Shown here: piece after piece, positions 51,913-63,877 of the stretch
How positions within the stretch are numbered: the first letter of the stretch is position 1
Layout: each line of letters starts with the position of its first letter
IMG/VR virus record: IMGVR_UViG_3300025304_000053
Source: a virus
Length of the DNA: 64,000 bases
Direction: 5' to 3' (one strand)
Program-made: the position numbers and the translations under genes
The notes under the pieces: model-generated
What the model saw: only the letters and a program-made list of their open reading frames with translations
Databases searched by the model: none
What the model was told of the DNA's origin: nothing

Positions 51913-51949
51913 AGCCCCTCTTCCTTGACCGGGAGAGGGGCTTTTTTTT
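51913..51949 (+). terminator. End of late operon terminator
   Basis: AGCCCCTCT/AGAGGGGCT stem + T8. Confidence 0.85.
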
Positions 51950-54582: not shown

Positions 54583-54774
54583 GTGGATGATTGGATAGAA
54601 TGGAATGGCGGCGATTGTCCGGTAGACCCCGACACGTTGGTATGCATCAGGATGCGCGATGGCGAAGAGAGCCTCCCAGAGTGGCGCATTAAAGCCAGCG
54701 GATGGTTCTGGCACCACCGCGACAGCATTGGCGACATCGTTGCGTACCTCATCATAAAGGAACCCACCAATTGA
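54583..54774 (+). CDS. Small WNGG-motif phage protein
   Basis: GGAGG SD, GTG start; WIEWNGGDCPV...DIVAY. Confidence 0.6.
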   Translation: MDDWIEWNGGDCPVDPDTLVCIRMRDGEESLPEWRIKASGWFWHHRDSIGDIVAYLIIKEPTN

Positions 54775-56015
54775 CCACACCACCACTCACCGACGAACAA
54801 CTCGACGAAGCCGTCGCCGCCCTCAAGGAACACGGCAGCCAGGTCGCAGCCGCATCCGCCCTTGGCCTCGCGCGGTCTTCTTTCCAGAACCGCCTCAGAC
54901 GGGCGGCCGAACGCGGGATGCTTGGCGTTAAGCCGGTGTTGCCGGGGTTCCGCATCAGCCAGGTGACCTCCACGCCGAATGGTGACTTCGTCCAGCAGAA
55001 GCCGGAGCGCGGCGAAGAGTGGGCGCTGCCCGACGGCCATAGCGTCAAGGGCGTCTCGGCGCTCGTCGATGCGGAAGGGCGGACGATTCAGCAATGGATC
55101 AAGACGAAGGAAGAGCCGTCGGCCGTCGATATCGCCGCGATGCTTAAGTCGGCATTCGACGACGTTGCGCCAGCTGAGCCCATTCCAGCACCTCTCGTCT
55201 CGGAAGATGACCTTCTGACGCTCACGCCCCTCGCTGACTTCCATGTCGGTCTCTTCGCGTGGCATCGCGAAACCGGCGCGAACTGGGATCTGTCGATCGC
55301 CGAGCGAGTTATCGGTTCCGCTCTCGACGACTTGATTGCCAGAACTCCGCCGAGCGGTCATGCCATCGTTTTGGGCGGAGGCGATCTGCTCCACAGTGAT
55401 TCTAACGAGAACAAGACGGCAAAGTCTGGCAACGTCCTTCAGGTCGATGGGCGTTACCAGAAGGTGCTGATGACCGCCTGCAGGCTGGTCGTGCGCGCCA
55501 TTGACGCCAACCTCGCCCGCCACGGTCACGTGACCGTCCGTGTCTTGCCAGGCAATCACGACGAACACGCATCAGTCGCCGTCGCCTATTTCCTTCTGGC
55601 TTGGTACCGCAACGAGCCGCGGGTGACTGTCGACGTAGACCCGTCGCTGTTCTTCTGGTTCCGCTTCGGAAAGGTGCTGCTCGGGGCGACGCACGGCCAC
55701 ACCGTCAAGCTCAAAGATATGGCCAGTATCATGGCCCACCGCCGCGCTGAAGACTGGGGCGCGACGGTCCACCGGTTCATTCACGGGTTCCACATCCACC
55801 ACTCGAGCAAGTACGCGACAGAAGGCAATGGCGTGATTTCGGAATCGCACCAGACGCCTACGCCGCAGGACGCTTGGCACTGGGGCGCCGGCTTCTTGTC
55901 CGGTCGGTCGATGCAGGCGATCTCGTATCATCGCGAGTTCGGGGAAGTTTCGCGCGTGCGGGTCGCCATGATGGATGCGGCCAATGACAACGTGCCGTCG
56001 CGAGCGGCCGCGTGA
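54771..56015 (+). CDS. Calcineurin-like metallophosphoesterase with N-terminal HTH
   Basis: DFH, GGDLLH, GNHD, HGH, GFHIHH motifs. Confidence 0.85.
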   Translation: MTTPPLTDEQLDEAVAALKEHGSQVAAASALGLARSSFQNRLRRAAERGMLGVKPVLPGFRISQVTSTPNGDFVQQKPERGEEWALPDGHSVKGVSALVDAEGRTIQQWIKTKEEPSAVDIAAMLKSAFDDVAPAEPIPAPLVSEDDLLTLTPLADFHVGLFAWHRETGANWDLSIAERVIGSALDDLIARTPPSGHAIVLGGGDLLHSDSNENKTAKSGNVLQVDGRYQKVLMTACRLVVRAIDANLARHGHVTVRVLPGNHDEHASVAVAYFLLAWYRNEPRVTVDVDPSLFFWFRFGKVLLGATHGHTVKLKDMASIMAHRRAEDWGATVHRFIHGFHIHHSSKYATEGNGVISESHQTPTPQDAWHWGAGFLSGRSMQAISYHREFGEVSRVRVAMMDAANDNVPSRAAA

Positions 56016-56725
56016 CCATTCACTACCACGGAACGCCGCTCACGCCGCGAGCCGAGCTTGAAAAGATGAGGGGCAAGCACCTTTGCGTGTCCTTCGCCAA
56101 TCCCGGCGATGCTGACTGGTGCCTAGCGAACGCTCAGTCGGTACTTTGGGATAATGGCGCTTACGTCTTCTACAGCAGCGGCAGGCCGATACTCAACTGG
56201 TCCAAGTTCTACATCTGGGTTGAGCCAAGGTTGGGTCACCCGCATTGGGCTGTGGTTCCTGACGTTATTGGCGGTGGGGTGGAAGACAACCTGGCGCTGA
56301 TCAAGCAATGGCCATTCCGTAAGGAACTTGCTGCTGTCGTTTGGCACCTAGACGAGCCAATCGAACATCTCATCGCGTTGGTGGAGATGGGCTTCGGTAA
56401 AATATGTTTCGGGTCGGCCGGGGCATATTGGCAGGTCGGCTCCGAAAGGTGGGCAAGAAGAGTAGATGAGGCATTTAACGCTCTTATCCGTCACTTCGGC
56501 CACTTGCCTTGGATTCACATGCTTCGAGGCCTAGCGGTATGCGGTGACATCTGGCCGTTCGCCAGCGCGGACAGCACGAACGTTGCCAGGAACTTCAAAA
56601 ACAAGGGCAACGAGGTTTGCCCTGAAAGAATGGCGCGGCGTATCGACGCCGTGCAGAGCCCAATCAAGTGGGTAGATAGAACCGCCAACCACCACAGAGG
56701 AGACCTATTCGATGTCGCAGCTTGA
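56012..56725 (+). CDS. Putative TGT/DpdA-like transglycosylase
   Basis: DNGAY (cf. DSG(G/A)F), VVPDVIG, HMLRG, SADST; upstream of a VUT transporter. Confidence 0.5.
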   Translation: MTIHYHGTPLTPRAELEKMRGKHLCVSFANPGDADWCLANAQSVLWDNGAYVFYSSGRPILNWSKFYIWVEPRLGHPHWAVVPDVIGGGVEDNLALIKQWPFRKELAAVVWHLDEPIEHLIALVEMGFGKICFGSAGAYWQVGSERWARRVDEAFNALIRHFGHLPWIHMLRGLAVCGDIWPFASADSTNVARNFKNKGNEVCPERMARRIDAVQSPIKWVDRTANHHRGDLFDVAA

Positions 56726-57110
56726 GAAAACAATCTATTTGTGCGGGCCGATTAACGGCTGCACCGACGAGGAATGCAAGGACTGGCGCGAGTTCGTCAA
56801 GTCCAAGTGGGAAGGCAAGACGCTCGACCCGATGCGGCGCGACTACCGCGGCAAGGAAGATGAATCAGTCAAGGAGATTGTCGAGCTCGACAAGATCGAC
56901 GTCACCGATTCCGATGTCATCCTCGTCAACTACGACAAGCCGAGTGTCGGCACATCCATGGAAATCCTCTATGCCTTCGATCGCGGCAAACTCGTCGTCG
57001 TTGTAGCCAAGGAAGGCACGCGCATTTCCCCGTGGATGCGCTATCACAGCCACAAGATCGTCGGCTCATTCGAAGCAGCTATCGAGTTCGTGCGGGATTT
57101 CTACGCATGA
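56712..57110 (+). CDS. Nucleoside 2-deoxyribosyltransferase-like protein
   Basis: IYLCGP, D..DVTDSDVILV, SVGTSMEILYA. Confidence 0.8.
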   Translation: MSQLEKTIYLCGPINGCTDEECKDWREFVKSKWEGKTLDPMRRDYRGKEDESVKEIVELDKIDVTDSDVILVNYDKPSVGTSMEILYAFDRGKLVVVVAKEGTRISPWMRYHSHKIVGSFEAAIEFVRDFYA

Positions 57111-57631
57111 AGAAGCTGGCTCTCTTGATGGCGGCTTTTGCCGCCACGGTCCCCGCCGCCAACTGGCTTATCAGCAACGTCGGCACGGTCTGCATTCCAT
57201 CTGGCCCGTGCCTCATCCCAGTCGGATTCGGTTTAACCGCTCCGTCTGGCGTGTTGCTTGTAGGTCTGGGCTTAGTCTTGCGGGACATGGTGCATGAGGC
57301 TGGCGGCGTTCGCGCATCTATGCTGGCTATCGCTATCGGCGGAGTTCTGTCGGCGCTGTTCGCGCCTCCGGCTTTGATATTGGCTTCAATCGCGGCATTC
57401 ATCCTGGCCGAGTTGGCAGACCTTTTTGTTTATGCGCCACTGCGCGAGAAGCGCTTTGGGTTGGCCGTTCTGGCGAGTGGCGCAGTCGGTGCGGTGGTCG
57501 ACAGTGCGGTATTCTTGCTGCTGGCCTTCGGGTCTCTCGCTTTCATCGAAGGACAAATTCTAGGCAAGCTCTGGATGAGCCTACTGGCCTTCGCTTTTAT
57601 CGCATACCGGCGACGCGCTTTGCTCGCCTAA
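57107..57631 (+). CDS. VUT-family (YhhQ-like) queuosine-precursor transporter
   Basis: AANWL, LRDMVHE, ASIAAF..AELAD..VY, VDS.VF..LAF, GQILGK. Confidence 0.82.
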   Translation: MKKLALLMAAFAATVPAANWLISNVGTVCIPSGPCLIPVGFGLTAPSGVLLVGLGLVLRDMVHEAGGVRASMLAIAIGGVLSALFAPPALILASIAAFILAELADLFVYAPLREKRFGLAVLASGAVGAVVDSAVFLLLAFGSLAFIEGQILGKLWMSLLAFAFIAYRRRALLA

Positions 57632-57686
57632 ACCACCACCACCCGCCGGCCACCAACCGGCGGTCACCACCACAGAGGAGACTGAA

Positions 57687-58253
57687 ATGGAAATCGTAGG
57701 CACACTTAGAAACGCGCGCCGTGTCAGCGCGAGGGAAGACATGCGTGGTCCCTGCCTTTACGGGCAGGTCTACGGCGATACGAAGGGCCGCTTCCTGGAC
57801 GGCGAGTACATCACCACCAGCACAATTATGAGCGAGGACGGGGACCTCTTCAAAACGCGCTACAGCGCCTACAAGGTCGAGCATTGGGCTGGCCAGCCGA
57901 GCAAGCCGGTTGTTGCTGCGAATGACAACTACTCCGACCTGCGCGCTGCAAACGTCGCGCGCCAGAAAGAGTGGGACGGCGACGACCAGATTGACCTGGC
58001 CTATCGCGGCAATGAACTCGCCGGCGAAGTTGGCGAGGCTTGCAACGTCATCAAGAAACTCGAGCGCGAGCGCCGTGGTATCGCAGGCTCTCGCGACACC
58101 GTCGCGCATCTGGCCGAGGAACTTGCTGACATCATCATCTGCACCGATCTGGTGGCAATGCAGGCCGGTATCGACCTGAACAAGGCGGTCGCCGCCAAGT
58201 TCAACGCCACGAGCGAGAAGGTCGGGCTTCGCACCCGCTTGGTGGCGGCATGA
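57687..58253 (+). CDS. MazG-like nucleotide pyrophosphohydrolase
   Basis: ELAGEVGE...EELAD...AKFN in C-terminal half. Confidence 0.82.
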   Translation: MEIVGTLRNARRVSAREDMRGPCLYGQVYGDTKGRFLDGEYITTSTIMSEDGDLFKTRYSAYKVEHWAGQPSKPVVAANDNYSDLRAANVARQKEWDGDDQIDLAYRGNELAGEVGEACNVIKKLERERRGIAGSRDTVAHLAEELADIIICTDLVAMQAGIDLNKAVAAKFNATSEKVGLRTRLVAA

Positions 58254-58465
58254 ACTACGGACAGGCTATTGAGGCCATGAAGGCTGGAAAGCCAGCGAGA
58301 CGCACCGCCGCCGGATACGTGCATCTCGCTCACCGCGGCACACCGCTGCAGTATCTCGAAGCCGTTGTCGCTGGCGAGGGGCGCAAGCCATACATCCCGT
58401 CGATAGACGACCAACTGGCGGAAGACTGGCAGGTGCCGCAGGCGCCCGTGAAGGAGGCTGCGTGA
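58250..58465 (+). CDS. DUF2829 / Tad2-like protein
   Basis: NYGQAIEAMKAGK..RR...PYIPS..DQLAEDW. Confidence 0.65.
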   Translation: MNYGQAIEAMKAGKPARRTAAGYVHLAHRGTPLQYLEAVVAGEGRKPYIPSIDDQLAEDWQVPQAPVKEAA

Positions 58466-59067
58466 TGTACGTGTTCAGAAACGAATCTCCTGTGCCGGTC
58501 GAACTCTCTACCACCACCTTCGGCCCGCTCGACAAGTACGTCGCCGCCAACGACAACGTGCCGCAGGATGAAAGCGGCCAGTCGGCTGGATTTGGGTTCG
58601 CCTCCATCCGCGGCGAACTGGGCAGCGGCAAGCCATACCTCTATAGCGAGGAGGAGCTTGCCGCCAAGGAAGACCCTCTGGCAGCTATCGCCAACCTGCC
58701 TGGCTTCATCTATCTCGGCTCACCTTACGCCAAGTACCATGCTGGCATGGACGAGGCCGCGCGCGTCGTCACGCAATGCGCCGGCAAGCTTATGGCTCGC
58801 GGCCTGCGGATCTACTGCCCGATTGCACACGGTCACGCCGTGACGCGCCATCAGGAACTACCGCGCACCTGGGATTACTGGAAAGACCAGGATCAGCCTT
58901 TGATCGATGCAGCCTCGGCGCTCATCGTTCTCGAAATGCGCGGTTGGTGGGATTCGGTCGGTCTCAAGTACGAGTTCGAGTCGTTCTTGGCCGCAGGCAA
59001 GCCGATTGTCTATCTCGAGCCGTATGATCTTGGCGTGTTCGAACGGGGTGTGCGGAGGTCGGCGTGA
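58462..59067 (+). CDS. DUF1937-like (nucleoside deoxyribosyltransferase-fold) protein
   Basis: YLGSPY, PIAHGH, GWWDSVG...E. Confidence 0.65.
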   Translation: MMYVFRNESPVPVELSTTTFGPLDKYVAANDNVPQDESGQSAGFGFASIRGELGSGKPYLYSEEELAAKEDPLAAIANLPGFIYLGSPYAKYHAGMDEAARVVTQCAGKLMARGLRIYCPIAHGHAVTRHQELPRTWDYWKDQDQPLIDAASALIVLEMRGWWDSVGLKYEFESFLAAGKPIVYLEPYDLGVFERGVRRSA

Positions 59068-59255
59068 GCAAGGATAATATCGACGGTACCTGCATCATTG
59101 GCTACGTGGCAATGGTGGCCGTGGCCTACGGTTTCTTTGTAAAATCCATGTTCGCGGCATTCGGCCCCAGTATAGCGCACATCATTTTCGGTATTCCTGT
59201 TGCGGCCTTCTGGCCTGTCTCCGGGCTCATTTGGCTGGGGGTATGGCTCGCATGA
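59064..59255 (+). CDS. Small membrane protein
   Basis: Two hydrophobic helices; coupled. Confidence 0.55.
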   Translation: MSKDNIDGTCIIGYVAMVAVAYGFFVKSMFAAFGPSIAHIIFGIPVAAFWPVSGLIWLGVWLA

Positions 59256-59686
59256 CCCAGTACGTCCTGCTGAAACGCGACCTCTACGAGAACCCTGGCC
59301 ACATGGGCTACACCGGCATCCGAGACAAGGCGGGCACATGGCCCGCCGAGGACTTCGCCGGCCACGGCATCCCTATCAAGGACGCATACACGCCGAAGGA
59401 GCGTGACAGCTACGCCATTCCGCTCGACGTCGCGCCGGAGTTCACCAACGAGTGCTTTCACGACCTGTCACTGGCCCACCTTCGTGGGAAGGTTGACCGG
59501 CTCCAGGAGGCGCTGACGCCGAGCGGATCGACGAAAGCAGCTTACATTGGAGAGTTCAGCTTTGATGTCGAAGACAGGGACGAGGACGGCGAGGAGTGCT
59601 CGCGCAACGTCGTTGTGCCTTGGACGACGGTGAAGGAGATAATGGCGGCCATTCGGTCGCGGGCGGAAATGAAGGAGGCGGCGTGA
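59252..59686 (+). CDS. Hypothetical protein
   Basis: ATGA coupled; ends in EAA. Confidence 0.65.
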   Translation: MTQYVLLKRDLYENPGHMGYTGIRDKAGTWPAEDFAGHGIPIKDAYTPKERDSYAIPLDVAPEFTNECFHDLSLAHLRGKVDRLQEALTPSGSTKAAYIGEFSFDVEDRDEDGEECSRNVVVPWTTVKEIMAAIRSRAEMKEAA

Positions 59687-59835
59687 TGTTGGCTTGGTGG
59701 ATGAAATTTCTTCCATACATCGTCGTCATCTGGATGGCCAAGCGAAACGCCGAACGCTTTGACTTCCTGAAACCGGGATATAGCAGCGTGGTCCCATTTA
59801 GGGACGAGGTCATCTCGTGGAGTAACGCCAAATGA
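59686..59835 (+). CDS. Small hypothetical protein
   Basis: AAGGAGG SD; coupled. Confidence 0.5.
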   Translation: MLAWWMKFLPYIVVIWMAKRNAERFDFLKPGYSSVVPFRDEVISWSNAK

Positions 59836-60110
59836 CCACCATCAAGCCCGGCGACGAGGTTGTCTGTGTCGACGACAGCACCCTTCCACTGCAATACCTC
59901 GGCATCCGTGCCGGGGAGATCTACAAAGCCCGATGGGTCGGACCGGTCACCAGCTATCTGAACGGCGACTACATCGGCGTGCGGCTGGCCGGCATTAACC
60001 GCGGCGTCTGCCCTGAATTCGGAGATGAGGATCCGCCATTTCGGGCAAGTAGGTTCCGGCCAGTCGTGAAGCCGTCGGCACCAGTGCGAGAATTGGAGGA
60101 GGCGCTATGA
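59832..60110 (+). CDS. Hypothetical protein
   Basis: IKPGDEVVCV; coupled. Confidence 0.6.
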   Translation: MTTIKPGDEVVCVDDSTLPLQYLGIRAGEIYKARWVGPVTSYLNGDYIGVRLAGINRGVCPEFGDEDPPFRASRFRPVVKPSAPVRELEEAL

Positions 60111-60439
60111 AGCTTGCGGTTATTGGCAGTCGCGGGTTCCGTGACCATCGCCTTATGCATGAACGTCTCTCAGAGATGCGGCCAACACTTGTCATAAGCG
60201 GCGGCGCTAAGGGCGCAGACCAAATGTCGGAGACGTGGGCGCGGCGAATCGGCGTGCCCACCCAGATTTTTCTGCCAGACCATAAGACGTACAAGCACGC
60301 CTTCCACCATCGCAACCGCCTAATAGCCGAAGCTTGCGATCATCTGATGGCGTTCTGGGACGGATCATCGACTGGGACCAAATACACGATTGGTTACGCT
60401 CGCCGGATCGGCAAGCCGGTAACCGTGGTGAGATATTGA
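60107..60439 (+). CDS. SLOG-superfamily (DUF2493/YspA-like) protein
   Basis: VIGSR, SGGAKGAD, RNRLI, FWDGSSTGT. Confidence 0.8.
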   Translation: MKLAVIGSRGFRDHRLMHERLSEMRPTLVISGGAKGADQMSETWARRIGVPTQIFLPDHKTYKHAFHHRNRLIAEACDHLMAFWDGSSTGTKYTIGYARRIGKPVTVVRY

Positions 60440-60450
60440 GAGGAGGCATT

Positions 60451-60669
60451 ATGACAGAGAAAAAGTGGACGAACTGGAACGGCGGCAAGTTCCTGCCGGT
60501 GCCAGAGCAATCGATCGGCGACGTGCGCCTGCGCTGCGGCAAGGTGCTGACCGGCATCAAGGCCGGCGACGTGCTGTGGGGCCGCGCCAAGCGGGAAGTC
60601 GCGGCAAACGACAATGACAGCAACGGCGGTGAGATCGTCGCGTATTGTTTCGAGGGGGAGGCGGCGTGA
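60451..60669 (+). CDS. Small WNGG-motif phage protein
   Basis: WTNWNGG...EIVAY; GGAGG SD. Confidence 0.6.
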   Translation: MTEKKWTNWNGGKFLPVPEQSIGDVRLRCGKVLTGIKAGDVLWGRAKREVAANDNDSNGGEIVAYCFEGEAA

Positions 60670-60878
60670 TGGGAGGCGGGGATCGAAAGCGCCTGCGACT
60701 GGACTACATCGGAGCCAGCATGGCCGGAGACAACCGGCACGCCTTGGCGATCATGCAGGAGCTTGGCGTGCGATGGTCATCCGCGACGCCGCAGCCTATC
60801 GCGGACTGTTGGATATTTGATGACTGCACCGACGTCCCATCAAAACTTCCTTCATATGTAGAGGAGACCACACCATGA
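60669..60878 (+). CDS. Small hypothetical protein
   Basis: Coupled ORF. Confidence 0.55.
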   Translation: MGGGDRKRLRLDYIGASMAGDNRHALAIMQELGVRWSSATPQPIADCWIFDDCTDVPSKLPSYVEETTP

Positions 60879-61558
60879 CCCTAGCATCTGAAGACTCCGG
60901 CTGCATCACCGAAGTGCCGGCCGCCAACGACAATATCCCGGCGGAGATACGTGCACTCGGCGCGGCGATCGGGAAATATCCAGAAGGCACGCCATCCTCG
61001 TCGTTCGACCTGCCGGCCAATGACAACAACCTACCGCCAATCGTCGCTTTCACAGGCCAGGCTGGCAGCGGCAAGTCGACTGCGACGCGCTATCTCGTCG
61101 AGCAGCACGGCTACACGCTGGTGAAGTTCGCAGGGCCGCTCAAGGACATGATGCGGGCGATCGGCCTTGACGAACGTCAGATTGAAGGCGACCTGAAAGA
61201 GACGCCGTGCGAATGGCTGCAAGGTCGGACTCCCCGCCACGCCATGCAGACCTTGGGCACTCAGTGGGGGAGGGACTGCATAGGGAAGGACTTCTGGATC
61301 GAGTTGTGGGTGAGGAGCGCCAACATCATCATGCACGACGGCGGCCGCGTCGTGGTCGACGACTGCCGGTTCCCGAACGAGGCAAAGGCTATCCGCGAGC
61401 TAGGCGGCGATATCTTCCGCCTTGTCGGGCGGGGGGGCATTGCCGGCAACCACGAATCGGAGCGCGGGTGTGGCGATGAGGATCTGGTCATCGCCAATAA
61501 CAACACGACGGCCGAGTTGTTCAACAAGGTTGACGATGCGTTGAGGCGGTATGGGTGA
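60875..61558 (+). CDS. Deoxynucleoside monophosphate kinase
   Basis: GQAGSGKST, FAGPLK, R.AMQTLGTQWGR, DDCRFPNE. Confidence 0.88.
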   Translation: MTLASEDSGCITEVPAANDNIPAEIRALGAAIGKYPEGTPSSSFDLPANDNNLPPIVAFTGQAGSGKSTATRYLVEQHGYTLVKFAGPLKDMMRAIGLDERQIEGDLKETPCEWLQGRTPRHAMQTLGTQWGRDCIGKDFWIELWVRSANIIMHDGGRVVVDDCRFPNEAKAIRELGGDIFRLVGRGGIAGNHESERGCGDEDLVIANNNTTAELFNKVDDALRRYG

Positions 61559-61790
61559 GATTCCGAATGATGTTATGAAGGCCGCAGAGGCTGAGTACGA
61601 TAGCAGCGATATGCACCTTGGCCCAAACCAAACGAGGGCAGCTATTAAGGCTCTTGCCAACGCCATCCTCGCAGAGCGACAGCGTTGCGCGGATGTGGCG
61701 CAGAAGGAAGGTGACGGCTACAAGGAGGCCGGGCTGCCACAATCAGCGATGGGGGCGTACACCACCCGCCGGGCAATCTTAGGCATATAA
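61551..61790 (+). CDS. Small hypothetical protein
   Basis: Coupled; AILAERQRCA. Confidence 0.6.
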   Translation: MGEIPNDVMKAAEAEYDSSDMHLGPNQTRAAIKALANAILAERQRCADVAQKEGDGYKEAGLPQSAMGAYTTRRAILGI

Positions 61791-61806: not shown

Positions 61807-61838
61807 AACCCGCCAGTCACACGGCGGGTTTTTCTTTC
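61807..61838 (+). terminator. Terminator of right accessory operon
   Basis: AACCCGCC/GGCGGGTT stem + TTTCTTT. Confidence 0.8.
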
Positions 61839-62479: not shown

Positions 62480-63877
62480 TTATGTGTTTTCTTGCCGAAT
62501 CCAGTCGATATCGAACTTGATAGTCTCCAGAAACTCCTGCCGCCGCTTCATTTCTGCGCCGTCACCGTAGGTGGGCCGGCCGAACTCGTGCCCCATAAGG
62601 TCGGCCTGCATGCGGTCGGAGGCGTCGGCGTTCTCAATTCGATCTTGGAAGGTGTGGCGTAACGAATAGACCGTGTGCCTCTCGGTAGGGCGCAGGCCGT
62701 TCTTCTCCATGATTTTGTTGATGATGGCCGAAGCCGAGTCGGCCTTGTCTGCATATCGCGGAAAGCCGTTCGGGTGCTGTTTGGCGGCCCACAGCGCCAC
62801 GCCTACGAGCGGGATGCGGCGAATGGAGTAATCTGTCTTCTGGCGCCTGTCGGTGCGCTCAGCGACCTCGACATGCGGCACGGCGTCATCTAGCCGAATA
62901 TCCTGCCGGCGGAGGTTGCACACTTCGCCAAGCCGCATGCCTGTCTCGGACATGATATAGACGATGTGCCTGGCATCCTCGTTGAGGTTGTCCATCGCGC
63001 CAGCCTTGAGTATGTTGTCGCGCACCCACGCTGCGGGGAACGGCATGCGCTTGTCGAGCTTGGTGGCGTTGGTCTCCTTCAGACGAACCTTGTCCCACGC
63101 CGTGCGGTATTCGGTGTGCAGCGCGTCGTCTATGACGGTAAGCATGCCCTTTATGTCGCTGAAGCTTCGATTCGCGCTGTATGCCTTGAGGCTTTCCTTC
63201 TTCTTGCCGCCGGTCGTCTCTGCGCCTTTGGCGATTTTTTCGATCCACCAGTCGCGGAACCGGAGCACGTCGTTGCGCGTAACATCTGCCCATCGTGCAT
63301 CGCCAAGCAGGTCTTTCAGGTAGCTTATGGCTCGCTGGCGGGAAACCTTGTGCTTTGATATCTGCCGCGGTGACATGCCGGTGAGGCCGGCCTTGTTGTA
63401 TTTTTCGTAAAGCTCCCAGGTGTTGCTGATGCGCGGATCCGGTTCAGGCGCGAGCCCTAGGACGCCTGCCGGAATGGCGACGCTTGTCTCGAGATGTTGT
63501 GAGGCAACGGCGGCGCGCTCCCTGAACTCGTCTAGCGGCGTCATCGCCACCTCCTCCACCGGTCGATAGGTGAACCCCAAGGACTGCGCGGCCTTCACGG
63601 CTCGCTCATATTGCTCGATCGTCGATGCGTTGTCGTTGCTGCTGGCGATCGCCACCCAAAGCGCGGTGGTAGCCTTGTGGATTGCCTCGGCGCGCTCCAA
63701 GGCCTCTTTGTGGCTTTTCGTCTTTAAGCTCTTTTTGACATGGGGCGCACCGCCAGTCTTGGCATGAACCTCCAACGGGATGCGCCGGTAATATCGATAG
63801 ACGCCGCTTGGCTGCTTCTGAACGTATTTCGACAGATCGTCCACCGTATCCTCCTGTGTATCCAAATATGTAGCCAA
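62480..63877 (-). CDS. int: Tyrosine integrase
   Basis: GMRLGE (R), YSLRH (HxxR variant), MGH...TYG (H/W-Y); N-terminal arm-binding-like region. Confidence 0.93.
   Translation of the reverse strand: MATYLDTQEDTVDDLSKYVQKQPSGVYRYYRRIPLEVHAKTGGAPHVKKSLKTKSHKEALERAEAIHKATTALWVAIASSNDNASTIEQYERAVKAAQSLGFTYRPVEEVAMTPLDEFRERAAVASQHLETSVAIPAGVLGLAPEPDPRISNTWELYEKYNKAGLTGMSPRQISKHKVSRQRAISYLKDLLGDARWADVTRNDVLRFRDWWIEKIAKGAETTGGKKKESLKAYSANRSFSDIKGMLTVIDDALHTEYRTAWDKVRLKETNATKLDKRMPFPAAWVRDNILKAGAMDNLNEDARHIVYIMSETGMRLGEVCNLRRQDIRLDDAVPHVEVAERTDRRQKTDYSIRRIPLVGVALWAAKQHPNGFPRYADKADSASAIINKIMEKNGLRPTERHTVYSLRHTFQDRIENADASDRMQADLMGHEFGRPTYGDGAEMKRRQEFLETIKFDIDWIRQENT

Follow-up and report, generated by a model that had tools for sequence, protein, structure and literature searches.

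Phages have an established means of shielding their DNA from restriction enzymes and, in vitro, from Cas9, namely 7-deazaguanine bases. Among the described systems that most resemble the locus analyzed here are those of the Escherichia phages 9g and CAjan (Queuovirinae, DpdA1), which exchange guanine for preQ0 or G+ after replication, modify 25–32% of their guanines, and encode the synthesis proteins FolE, QueD, QueE, and QueC or Gat-QueC; the CAjan cluster also holds a yhhQ gene. The DpdA of 9g alone inserts host preQ0 into DNA, E. coli YhhQ transports preQ0, and in CAjan folE and queC mutants modification is about 12-fold lower and is drawn from host preQ0 (PMC6884629, PMC7544227). Bacterial Dpd systems (dpdA/dpdB with preQ0 genes; Thiaville 2016; Gedara 2023, PDB 7UI4) use a DpdA with the fold of tRNA-guanine transglycosylases (TGTs), and in some of these clusters yhhQ is embedded, which has been read as salvaged preQ0 entering DNA (Hutinet 2017, PMC5699537). 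Hutinet et al. 2019 (PMC6884629) listed 76 phages with 'DpdA only', proposed host supply or uptake of the base, and noted YhhQ homologues in phages. 'Import and insert' is, therefore, a hypothesis already in print (Hutinet 2017, 2019) and about ten years old. We analyzed the 64,000-nucleotide (nt) stretch of IMG/VR virus record IMGVR_UViG_3300025304_000053 (hereafter, the window), in which three coupled genes at 56012–57631 are predicted to encode a short DpdA-family protein, an enzyme resembling nucleoside 2-deoxyribosyltransferases (NDTs), and a Vut_1/YhhQ-type transporter.

The 'DpdA only' phages offered two close comparisons. Sinorhizobium phage phiLM21, listed with DpdA and YhhQ in group 3 of that set, has no listed preQ0 synthesis protein (PMC6884629, Suppl. 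Data 1); like the window phage it is a temperate phage of Rhizobiaceae, the likely hosts of the window phage, and its DpdA, gp25, is followed directly by a 175-aa Vut_1 protein, gp26, the pair lying in the early region beside DNA-metabolism genes. Unlike the window, phiLM21 has no NDT-like gene between DpdA and transporter, and gp25 belongs to another DpdA clade: it is 274 aa long, shows the DpdA motifs when compared with phage 9g DpdA, and could not be aligned with the window protein (BLASTP E 0.85, hhalign 3.6%). The second comparison is with the short singleton DpdAs of the lambdoid phages SfI, HK106, and BTP1 type, which belong to the same family as the window protein (phrog_887) and are likewise unaccompanied by synthesis genes (PMC6884629); this gammaproteobacterial clade, unlike the window, has neither an adjacent transporter nor an NDT-like gene.

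The first-pass annotation, made from the sequence alone, had called the 56012–56725 protein TGT/DpdA-like from the motifs DNGAY, HMLRG, and SADST, all of which were found in it. By sequence it had no match in Pfam, NCBIfam, or PDB, and comparison of the protein and of its family profile with PDB chains gave chance matches only; its PHROG family is labeled 'queuine tRNA-ribosyltransferase'. The family to which the window protein belongs is large, comprising 1764 proteins at E ≤ 1e-5 and 564 cluster representatives, with a typical length of about 230 aa. An AlphaFold (AF2) model built from 59 diverse relatives was a confident TIM barrel (predicted local distance difference test score, pLDDT, 94.5). 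In an exhaustive structural search with VIA-align, ranks 1, 2, 4, 6, and 9 were chains of the TGT superfamily (Z 15.8–12.5; 201–222 residues aligned; root-mean-square deviation 3.0–3.9), with archaeosine TGT 1IQ8 at Z 15.8, Cap10 at 15.4, bacterial TGT at 14.1, DpdA 7UI4 at 13.7, and QTRT2 at 12.5. As other TIM barrels came close behind, the TGT-type fold of the model is by itself suggestive. A Foldseek search of the same model against PDB gave weak, mixed TIM-barrel matches (E about 5e-3) and was by itself not decisive. The link that we regard as decisive for family membership, at the level of sequence profiles, is the hhalign match to the experimentally characterized DpdA of phage 9g (98% probability, E 2.4e-13), a longer protein of 317 aa. 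The TGT-like identity assigned by the first-pass annotation thus held, in that hhalign, AF2, and VIA-align together pointed to a TIM barrel of the TGT type.

In the same alignment D47 (in DNGAY), D84, H112, G134, H169, and D187 (in SADST) fell opposite the DSGAF, LDG, FH, GG, HG, and CDS motifs of 9g DpdA. These six positions were invariant or nearly so among the 59 relatives, D47, D84, H112, G134, and D187 being invariant or above 90%. The acid/base Asp, the base-reading Asp and His, the Gly loop, and the nucleophile Asp have been defined in Salmonella DpdA (PMC10164549), and from motif order and spacing D47/D84/H112/G134/D187 would correspond to D95/D130/H181/G207/D256 of 7UI4. The bacterial and window proteins are thus alike in this catalytic set; the bacterial enzyme differs in exceeding 400 aa, in its zinc site, in its need for the ATPase DpdB, and in being part of a restriction-modification system. 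The window protein ends 50 residues past the nucleophile, consists of the TIM-barrel core only, and has five scattered cysteines. It was 41% identical to the SfI protein (E 2e-31) and 35% identical to the HK106 protein (E 2e-18) over 81–99% of the length; both are listed as 'DpdA only' by Hutinet et al. 2019 (PMC6884629).

The third gene of the cassette encodes a small membrane protein of the Vut_1/YhhQ type (COG1738; also phrog_4899, E 7e-39) with five or six hydrophobic stretches (Kyte-Doolittle, window 19). Translation probably starts at the ATG at 57107, which gives 174 aa, the length of the relatives, rather than at the GTG at 57032. Its family scores mark the protein as a shortened, divergent member of the family, and a 7-deazaguanine substrate would have to be deduced for it rather than inherited from the family name.

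The association of this transporter with DpdA was examined in 83 viral (IMG/VR) and 80 species-genome loci containing DpdA relatives, gathered with an alignment of closer DpdA relatives than the diverse one and searched with the window proteins by tblastn and iterated hidden Markov models (HMMs). In 78 of the 83 viral loci the DpdA relative had a Vut_1 gene no more than 1 kb away, the transporters being 53–81% identical, and the same held for 28 of the 80 species genomes. Among the 80 genomic loci, Vut_1 was present in alphaproteobacterial and Solirubrobacterales prophages, and those of Pantoea, Erwinia, Yersinia, Rahnella, and Cupriavidus had no adjacent Vut_1 gene. This near-obligate, clade-specific linkage of DpdA and transporter is one contribution of these data, and it qualifies the 'no correlation' statement. 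The Vut_1 gene of Roseobacter phage CRP-701 had no DpdA-like neighbor.

The window transporter was 68% identical to phiLM21 gp26 and 55–57% identical to Vut_1 proteins encoded beside QueC in dpd-like islands of Microvirga, Devosia, and Ensifer. In these islands (Microvirga alba, L200; Devosia sp., L201; Ensifer sp., L202) the order was DUF6884, DndB-like, TGT-like (428 aa), DndB-like, QueC, and short Vut_1, and each resembles a DNA-modification system of the dpd type that has an importer of its own. The same transporter subtype appears to have become associated independently with three DpdA lineages: the window clade, that of phiLM21 gp25, and the islands with QueC and the TGT-like and DndB proteins. 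Each of the three genomes carries, besides the QueC paralogue of the island, a second, canonical QueC elsewhere. We also considered whether the phage importer replaces an absent host transporter and rejected the idea for the four alphaproteobacterial genomes checked (Agrobacterium, Ensifer, Microvirga, and Devosia), as all had several Vut_1 genes and QueC.

A DpdA-like gene was present in about 17 species-level Solirubrobacterales genomes (metagenome-assembled genomes, L134–L153), and an adjoining Vut_1 gene was detected in 12 of them. At the one locus inspected (L147:4297-5660) the pair was in a prophage-like setting, flanked by C5 and N6/N4 DNA methyltransferases, with a PAPS-reductase-like gene and a CHAP lysin also present. 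In the five Solirubrobacterales genomes that we checked there was no true QueC, and TGT was found in four; since these hosts lack a true QueC, the base must be imported there.

Between DpdA and transporter lies the gene for the NDT-like enzyme, which shares 14 nt with the DpdA gene and an ATGA with the transporter gene. Its AF2 model (pLDDT 93.1) gave as best Foldseek match the NDT 7O62 (template modeling score 0.77–0.79, E 8e-7), followed by DNPH1, MilB, Rcl, and LlNDT; NDTs and DNPH1 scored similarly. Glu84, invariant in the NDT-like family, lined up with the motif that holds the catalytic Glu in LlNDT and Rcl. The enzyme shares its fold and catalytic glutamate with NDTs and with the N-glycosidases DNPH1/Rcl, MilB, and BlsM; it differs from them in being only 16–21% identical and in having invariant motifs of its own, GCTDEEC, RRDYRG, and SPW. 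The phosphate-binding Arg of Rcl (GSIRGG) is Asn in this enzyme, and the arginines of RRDYRG are invariant in its family. The sequence would be compatible with either a nucleoside or a nucleotide substrate, and settles neither.

Relatives of the NDT-like enzyme (41–86% identity) were found in 23 viral loci, in 12 of which a DpdA-family gene was directly adjacent. The adjoining DpdAs ranged from 70% identity to barely detectable, four of the 12 being recognized only by the family HMM or hhalign, and the flanking genes varied among these loci. That the pair has been kept through deep divergence with differing flanks argues for a functional tie. Open reading frames (ORFs) upstream of the NDT-like gene in seven loci (L097, L100, L103, L104, L106, L108, and L110) were tried as DpdA candidates and were not DpdA-like by hhalign. 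Complex prediction for the DpdA-like and NDT-like proteins gave a score of 0.00, which, without controls, is evidence neither way. Most likely the enzyme is an optional accessory that would free the base from nucleoside or nucleotide forms. A stronger version, that it is a dedicated third component of the DpdA system, forming a nucleoside or nucleotide salvage branch that frees preQ0 or preQ1 from the (deoxy)nucleosides or dNMPs of DNA and tRNA turnover or reversibly parks the base on deoxyribose, seems to us doubtful; if true, it would add an NDT step undescribed in any 7-deazaguanine DNA-modification pathway. The terms 'DpdA' and 'nucleoside 2-deoxyribosyltransferase' occurred together in no paper of the literature that we searched, and the recurrent adjacency, at 12 of 23 loci, is probably a modest new point.

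The DpdA junction is occupied differently in other phages. There a conserved protein of 81–86 aa, 55–78% identical from Rhizobiaceae prophages to cyanophage Pam5 and ending in APAQHRYA, adjoins DpdA (L007:8731-8976, L009:8689-8934, L199:2196-2456 in Pam5, and L001:6518-6763 in RHph_X2_30; also L084, L116, and L117). In most of these loci its gene lies between DpdA and Vut_1, the slot of the NDT-like gene in the window; in RHph_X2_30 it closely follows the transporter gene and precedes DpdA. The protein matched nothing in Pfam, and the window encodes no counterpart of it.

The first-pass annotation had placed eight genes in one coupled operon: metallophosphoesterase, DpdA-like protein, NDT, transporter, MazG-like pyrophosphatase, DUF1937 protein, SLOG protein, and dNMP kinase. 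All eight were indeed present on the + strand at the positions given and were correctly named, as judged by Pfam, PHROG, and motifs; overlooked were the gene for a Tad2-like (DUF2829) protein and a number of small ORFs. The string is one of overlapping stop and start codons, and the only strong + strand terminators are those that bound the unit (Table 1). The description as one operon was, therefore, correct, with the amendment that the unit, roughly 10 kb long, begins at around 52 kb. Within it the three cassette genes are translationally coupled, with GTGA at the DpdA start, where the GTG overlaps the stop of the metallophosphoesterase gene, and the two overlaps already described. They are separated from the MazG block by a 55-nt spacer, the one gap of appreciable length between genes of the string, which contains a GC-rich hairpin. 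None of the genes for MazG, Tad2-like, DUF1937, or SLOG proteins occurred in any of the 83 viral or 80 genomic loci with DpdA relatives; a dNMP-kinase-like match was near DpdA in one lineage only, 2.7 kb distant, and the metallophosphoesterase (exonuclease) gene in few loci only, 2–3 kb off. From the linkage counts, the coupling, and the spacer we conclude that the functional unit is the three genes at 56012–57631, not eight.

No folE, queD, queE, or queC had been seen in the first reading of the sequence, and tblastn with the phage 9g proteins likewise detected none of FolE, QueD, QueC, and QueE in the window (all E > 0.1), within the limited sensitivity of such a search. QueC and PTPS/QueD were also absent from five related phage genomes that were 99–100% complete. 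The cassette does not appear to be a self-sufficient FolE-QueD-QueE-QueC plus DpdA system. Of the suggestion that this was a salvage-only modification system in a temperate phage, the core of DpdA and YhhQ-type transporter, the lack of synthesis genes, and the integrase were borne out; the inclusion of all eight genes as one system was not. Taken together, the transporter linkages, the hosts without QueC, and the missing synthesis genes favor insertion of an imported or host-made 7-deazaguanine into DNA.

We propose, with a probability of roughly 0.6, that the coupled cassette carries out import and insertion and that the other genes of the operon act independently of it. During infection or after induction, the Vut_1/YhhQ-type transporter would supply the cell with a free 7-deazaguanine base, most likely preQ0 or preQ1, that was lost by neighboring cells or present in the medium, in addition to the host's own supply. 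The short DpdA would then swap guanine in double-stranded phage DNA for this base after replication, the mechanism known from 9g and CAjan, by the double displacement of TGTs, with D187 as nucleophile, D47 as general acid/base, and D84 and H112 reading the base, and restriction would be blunted by the modification. Most likely, the NDT-like enzyme would release the base from its deoxynucleoside or deoxynucleotide forms and thereby let DpdA draw on nucleoside-level sources as well. The metallophosphoesterase, MazG-like, Tad2-like, DUF1937, and SLOG proteins and the dNMP kinase would be independent accessories, serving recombination, the nucleotide pool, or anti-defense, that share the operon. 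The data show the fold and family of the proteins, the conservation of their catalytic residues, the linkage of the genes, and the lack of synthesis genes; which base is used, that DNA receives it, which way it is transported, what the NDT-like enzyme does, and whether modification takes place are inferred.

A number of results weigh against this proposal. For the DpdA-like protein, neither the window protein nor any of its 59 relatives matched the Pfam TGT model PF01702, even at E ≤ 1, and the CxCxxC...H motif of the zinc site of TGTs and bacterial DpdA was absent from the window protein; we filed it as a short phage DpdA, neither a canonical TGT nor a bacterial DpdA. In the VIA-align search unrelated TIM barrels reached Z 13–14, a small margin below the 13.7–15.8 of the TGTs. 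The transporter scored 41.7 bits with TIGR00697, 'queuosine precursor transporter', under its cut-off of 50.95, and only 22.5 bits with the E. coli YhhQ model NF008406, for which the cut-off is 252. Deletion of yhhQ from CAjan, which makes its own preQ0, caused no change, so that there the gene is dispensable (PMC6884629, PMC7544227). The Rhizobiaceae, as likely hosts, have QueC and Vut_1 genes of their own, so it is not evident why a phage would need an importer. As for the NDT-like gene, it was present in only 5–6 of the 83 viral DpdA-transporter loci and stood without DpdA in 11 of its 23 loci, so that its role may be general. Of two 'DpdA only' phages that have been assayed, Mycobacterium phage Orion had no modification and phage 7-11 had 0.02% of G as dADG (PMC6884629); neither has a YhhQ entry in the portion of the supplementary list of PMC6884629 available to us.

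The example of Orion and 7-11 leads directly to the alternative of a passenger cassette, decaying or silent, which is expressed yet under normal conditions inserts nothing measurable. We consider this unlikely for the window, since the catalytic residues are invariant in so large a family, the coupled frames are intact, and the gene pair has been kept across deep divergence and with three DpdA lineages, all of which point to purifying selection on function. The sparse modification of 'DpdA only' phages would also suit a tRNA target, in which the short DpdA-like protein and the importer would act as a phage YhhQ and TGT pair that salvages queuine or preQ1 and tunes translation in the infected cell or lysogen. 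The TGT superfamily and the best structural match, an archaeosine TGT, fit such a role, and in PNAS in 2019 Yuan et al. reportedly described tRNA salvage through YhhQ and TGT in Chlamydia. The profile is nevertheless nearer to the DNA-modifying 9g DpdA than to any TGT, the zinc subdomain and C-terminal TGT domains are absent, many of the loci adjoin DNA methyltransferase and replication genes, and the hosts have their own TGT; thus, we judge a tRNA target distinctly unlikely.

It is very unlikely, in our estimate, that the target is a protein or small molecule, as with the CBASS protein Cap10, which attaches deazaguanine to a CD-NTase, or that the locus serves as a counter-defense or decoy, with the NDT-like, DUF1937, SLOG, and Tad2-like proteins forming a signal-nucleotide island. 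Cap10 was the second-best structural match, the operon does contain three proteins of the NDT/SLOG clan and a Tad2-like gene, and a call has been made to examine singleton DpdAs for functional divergence (PMC6884629). Against this, the catalytic set is that of DpdA base exchange, the window showed neither a QueC-like Cap9 partner nor a CD-NTase, a DNA-modification gene context recurs, and DpdA is not accompanied elsewhere by the remaining NDT/SLOG genes. Least likely of all is the nucleotide-level route to a modified dGTP that the first-pass annotation had raised for the NDT, kinase, and MazG set, by which all eight genes would form one pathway, with NDT joining the imported 7-deazaguanine base to deoxyribose, kinases converting the deoxynucleoside to the triphosphate, MazG clearing competing dGTP, and a polymerase incorporating the product: for all that these three proteins are present in a single transcription unit with overlapping stops and starts, and that in one related lineage 3 kb separates DpdA from a dGTP-diphosphohydrolase-like gene, the MazG, DUF1937, and SLOG genes stood beside DpdA relatives in none of the 163 loci, the MazG and DUF2829 pair travels alone in other Rhizobium phages, no deoxynucleoside kinase is available for the first phosphorylation, all studied phages with 7-deazaguanine DNA have a DpdA, with insertion held to be post-replicative (PMC10516641), and the presence of DpdA in the window makes such a route unnecessary.

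Gene content read along its 64 kb indicates that the window is close to a whole temperate siphophage genome. Replication genes occupy 3–24 kb; terminase, at about 29 kb, is followed by portal and major head protein, and the tape measure gene (39.7–42.8 kb) by tail fibers as far as about 50 kb. The tyrosine integrase near the end (Table 1) identifies the phage as temperate, and the weak DNA similarity of the window was to Rhizobium and Sinorhizobium phages.

Table 1. Features of the cassette, its operon, and the adjacent region of the window
Feature	Position	Strand	Evidence or remark
Terminator-like site, upstream counterpart	51913–51942	+	
Helix-turn-helix + Mre11/SbcD-type metallophosphoesterase	54702 (or TTG 54771)–56015	+	phrog_704 'DNA repair exonuclease', E 2e-105
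Short DpdA-family DNA-guanine transglycosylase (predicted), 237 aa	56012–56725	+	phrog_887, E 1.8e-37
NDT/DNPH1-superfamily enzyme, 132 aa	56712–57110	+	PF05014, 34.6 bits (cut-off 28.8)
Vut_1/YhhQ-type (COG1738) small membrane transporter, 174 aa	57107–57631	+	PF02592, 39.2 bits (cut-off 27.2)
GC-rich hairpin	57643–57663	+	CCGCCGG-7 nt-CCGGCGG by direct sequence reading; 7-bp stem, no T run
Downstream accessory block	57687–61790	+	Pfam and PHROG matches
MazG-like	57687–58253	+	Weak: 21.9 bits (cut-off 22)
Tad2-like/DUF2829	58250–58465	+	E 7e-11
DUF1937	58462–59067	+	E 1.6e-17
SLOG/YAcAr	60107–60439	+	E 3e-11
dNMP kinase	60875–61558	+	PF21448, E 1.8e-14; phrog_139, E 8e-50
ORF	61551–61790	+	Last of the accessory block
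Terminator-like (intrinsic) site closing the ~10-kb unit	61807–61830	+	
Tyrosine integrase	62480–63877	-	PF00589, E 1e-9; phrog_1, E 6e-21

Several features of the neighboring genes were observed alongside. The metallophosphoesterase, in which the motifs DFH, GDLLH, GNHDEH, GATHGH, and HIHH were found by direct reading, has an N-terminal helix-turn-helix (residues about 36–72, weak Pfam matches), an unusual fusion for a nuclease of the Mre11/SbcD type; its gene was 81% identical in nucleotide sequence to one in Sinorhizobium phage AP-16-3. The MazG-like and DUF2829 pair (57687–58465) is kept in Rhizobium phage RHph_TM3_3_14B (L004:7737-8350), with 81% nucleotide identity across the junction, and is followed there by a metal-dependent phosphohydrolase; the displayed 16-kb region of that phage held no gene annotated as DpdA. 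Three proteins of the operon belong to the NDT/SLOG clan, namely the NDT-like enzyme of the cassette (56712–57110), the DUF1937 protein (58462–59067; NDT in phrog_355), and the SLOG/YAcAr protein (60107–60439; weak PF05014 match), and this trio, with the Tad2-like gene among them, may be an anti-defense or nucleotide-signal island. In a related phage the gene for a protein with a dGTP-diphosphohydrolase N-domain (PF18909; L007:12014-12457) and a Lar-like restriction-alleviation gene lie a few kilobases downstream of the DpdA-transporter pair.

The analysis contributes the clade-specific transporter linkage, the association of one transporter subtype with three DpdA lineages, and the recurrent NDT partner. 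That five of the eight genes were passengers is a warning not to take a long phage operon for a single pathway. By showing that an importer is near-constant in one large clade, that its subtype accompanies two further DpdA lineages, and that the pair is found in prophages of hosts unable to make preQ0, the comparative data narrow the question of whether 'DpdA only' phages modify their DNA. We regard the window cassette as a clean, testable case and the NDT link as a small open lead. Import and insertion could be tested directly in the cultured phages phiLM21, RHph_N3_2, and RHph_X2_30, and it predicts that the level of modification depends on the precursor in the medium. If the NDT-like enzyme is a true third component, then short DpdA, mini-YhhQ, and NDT would be a complete kit without precursor synthesis, working in hosts that lack a queuosine pathway; as a member of an unstudied enzyme family, the NDT-like partner may link nucleoside salvage to DNA hypermodification.

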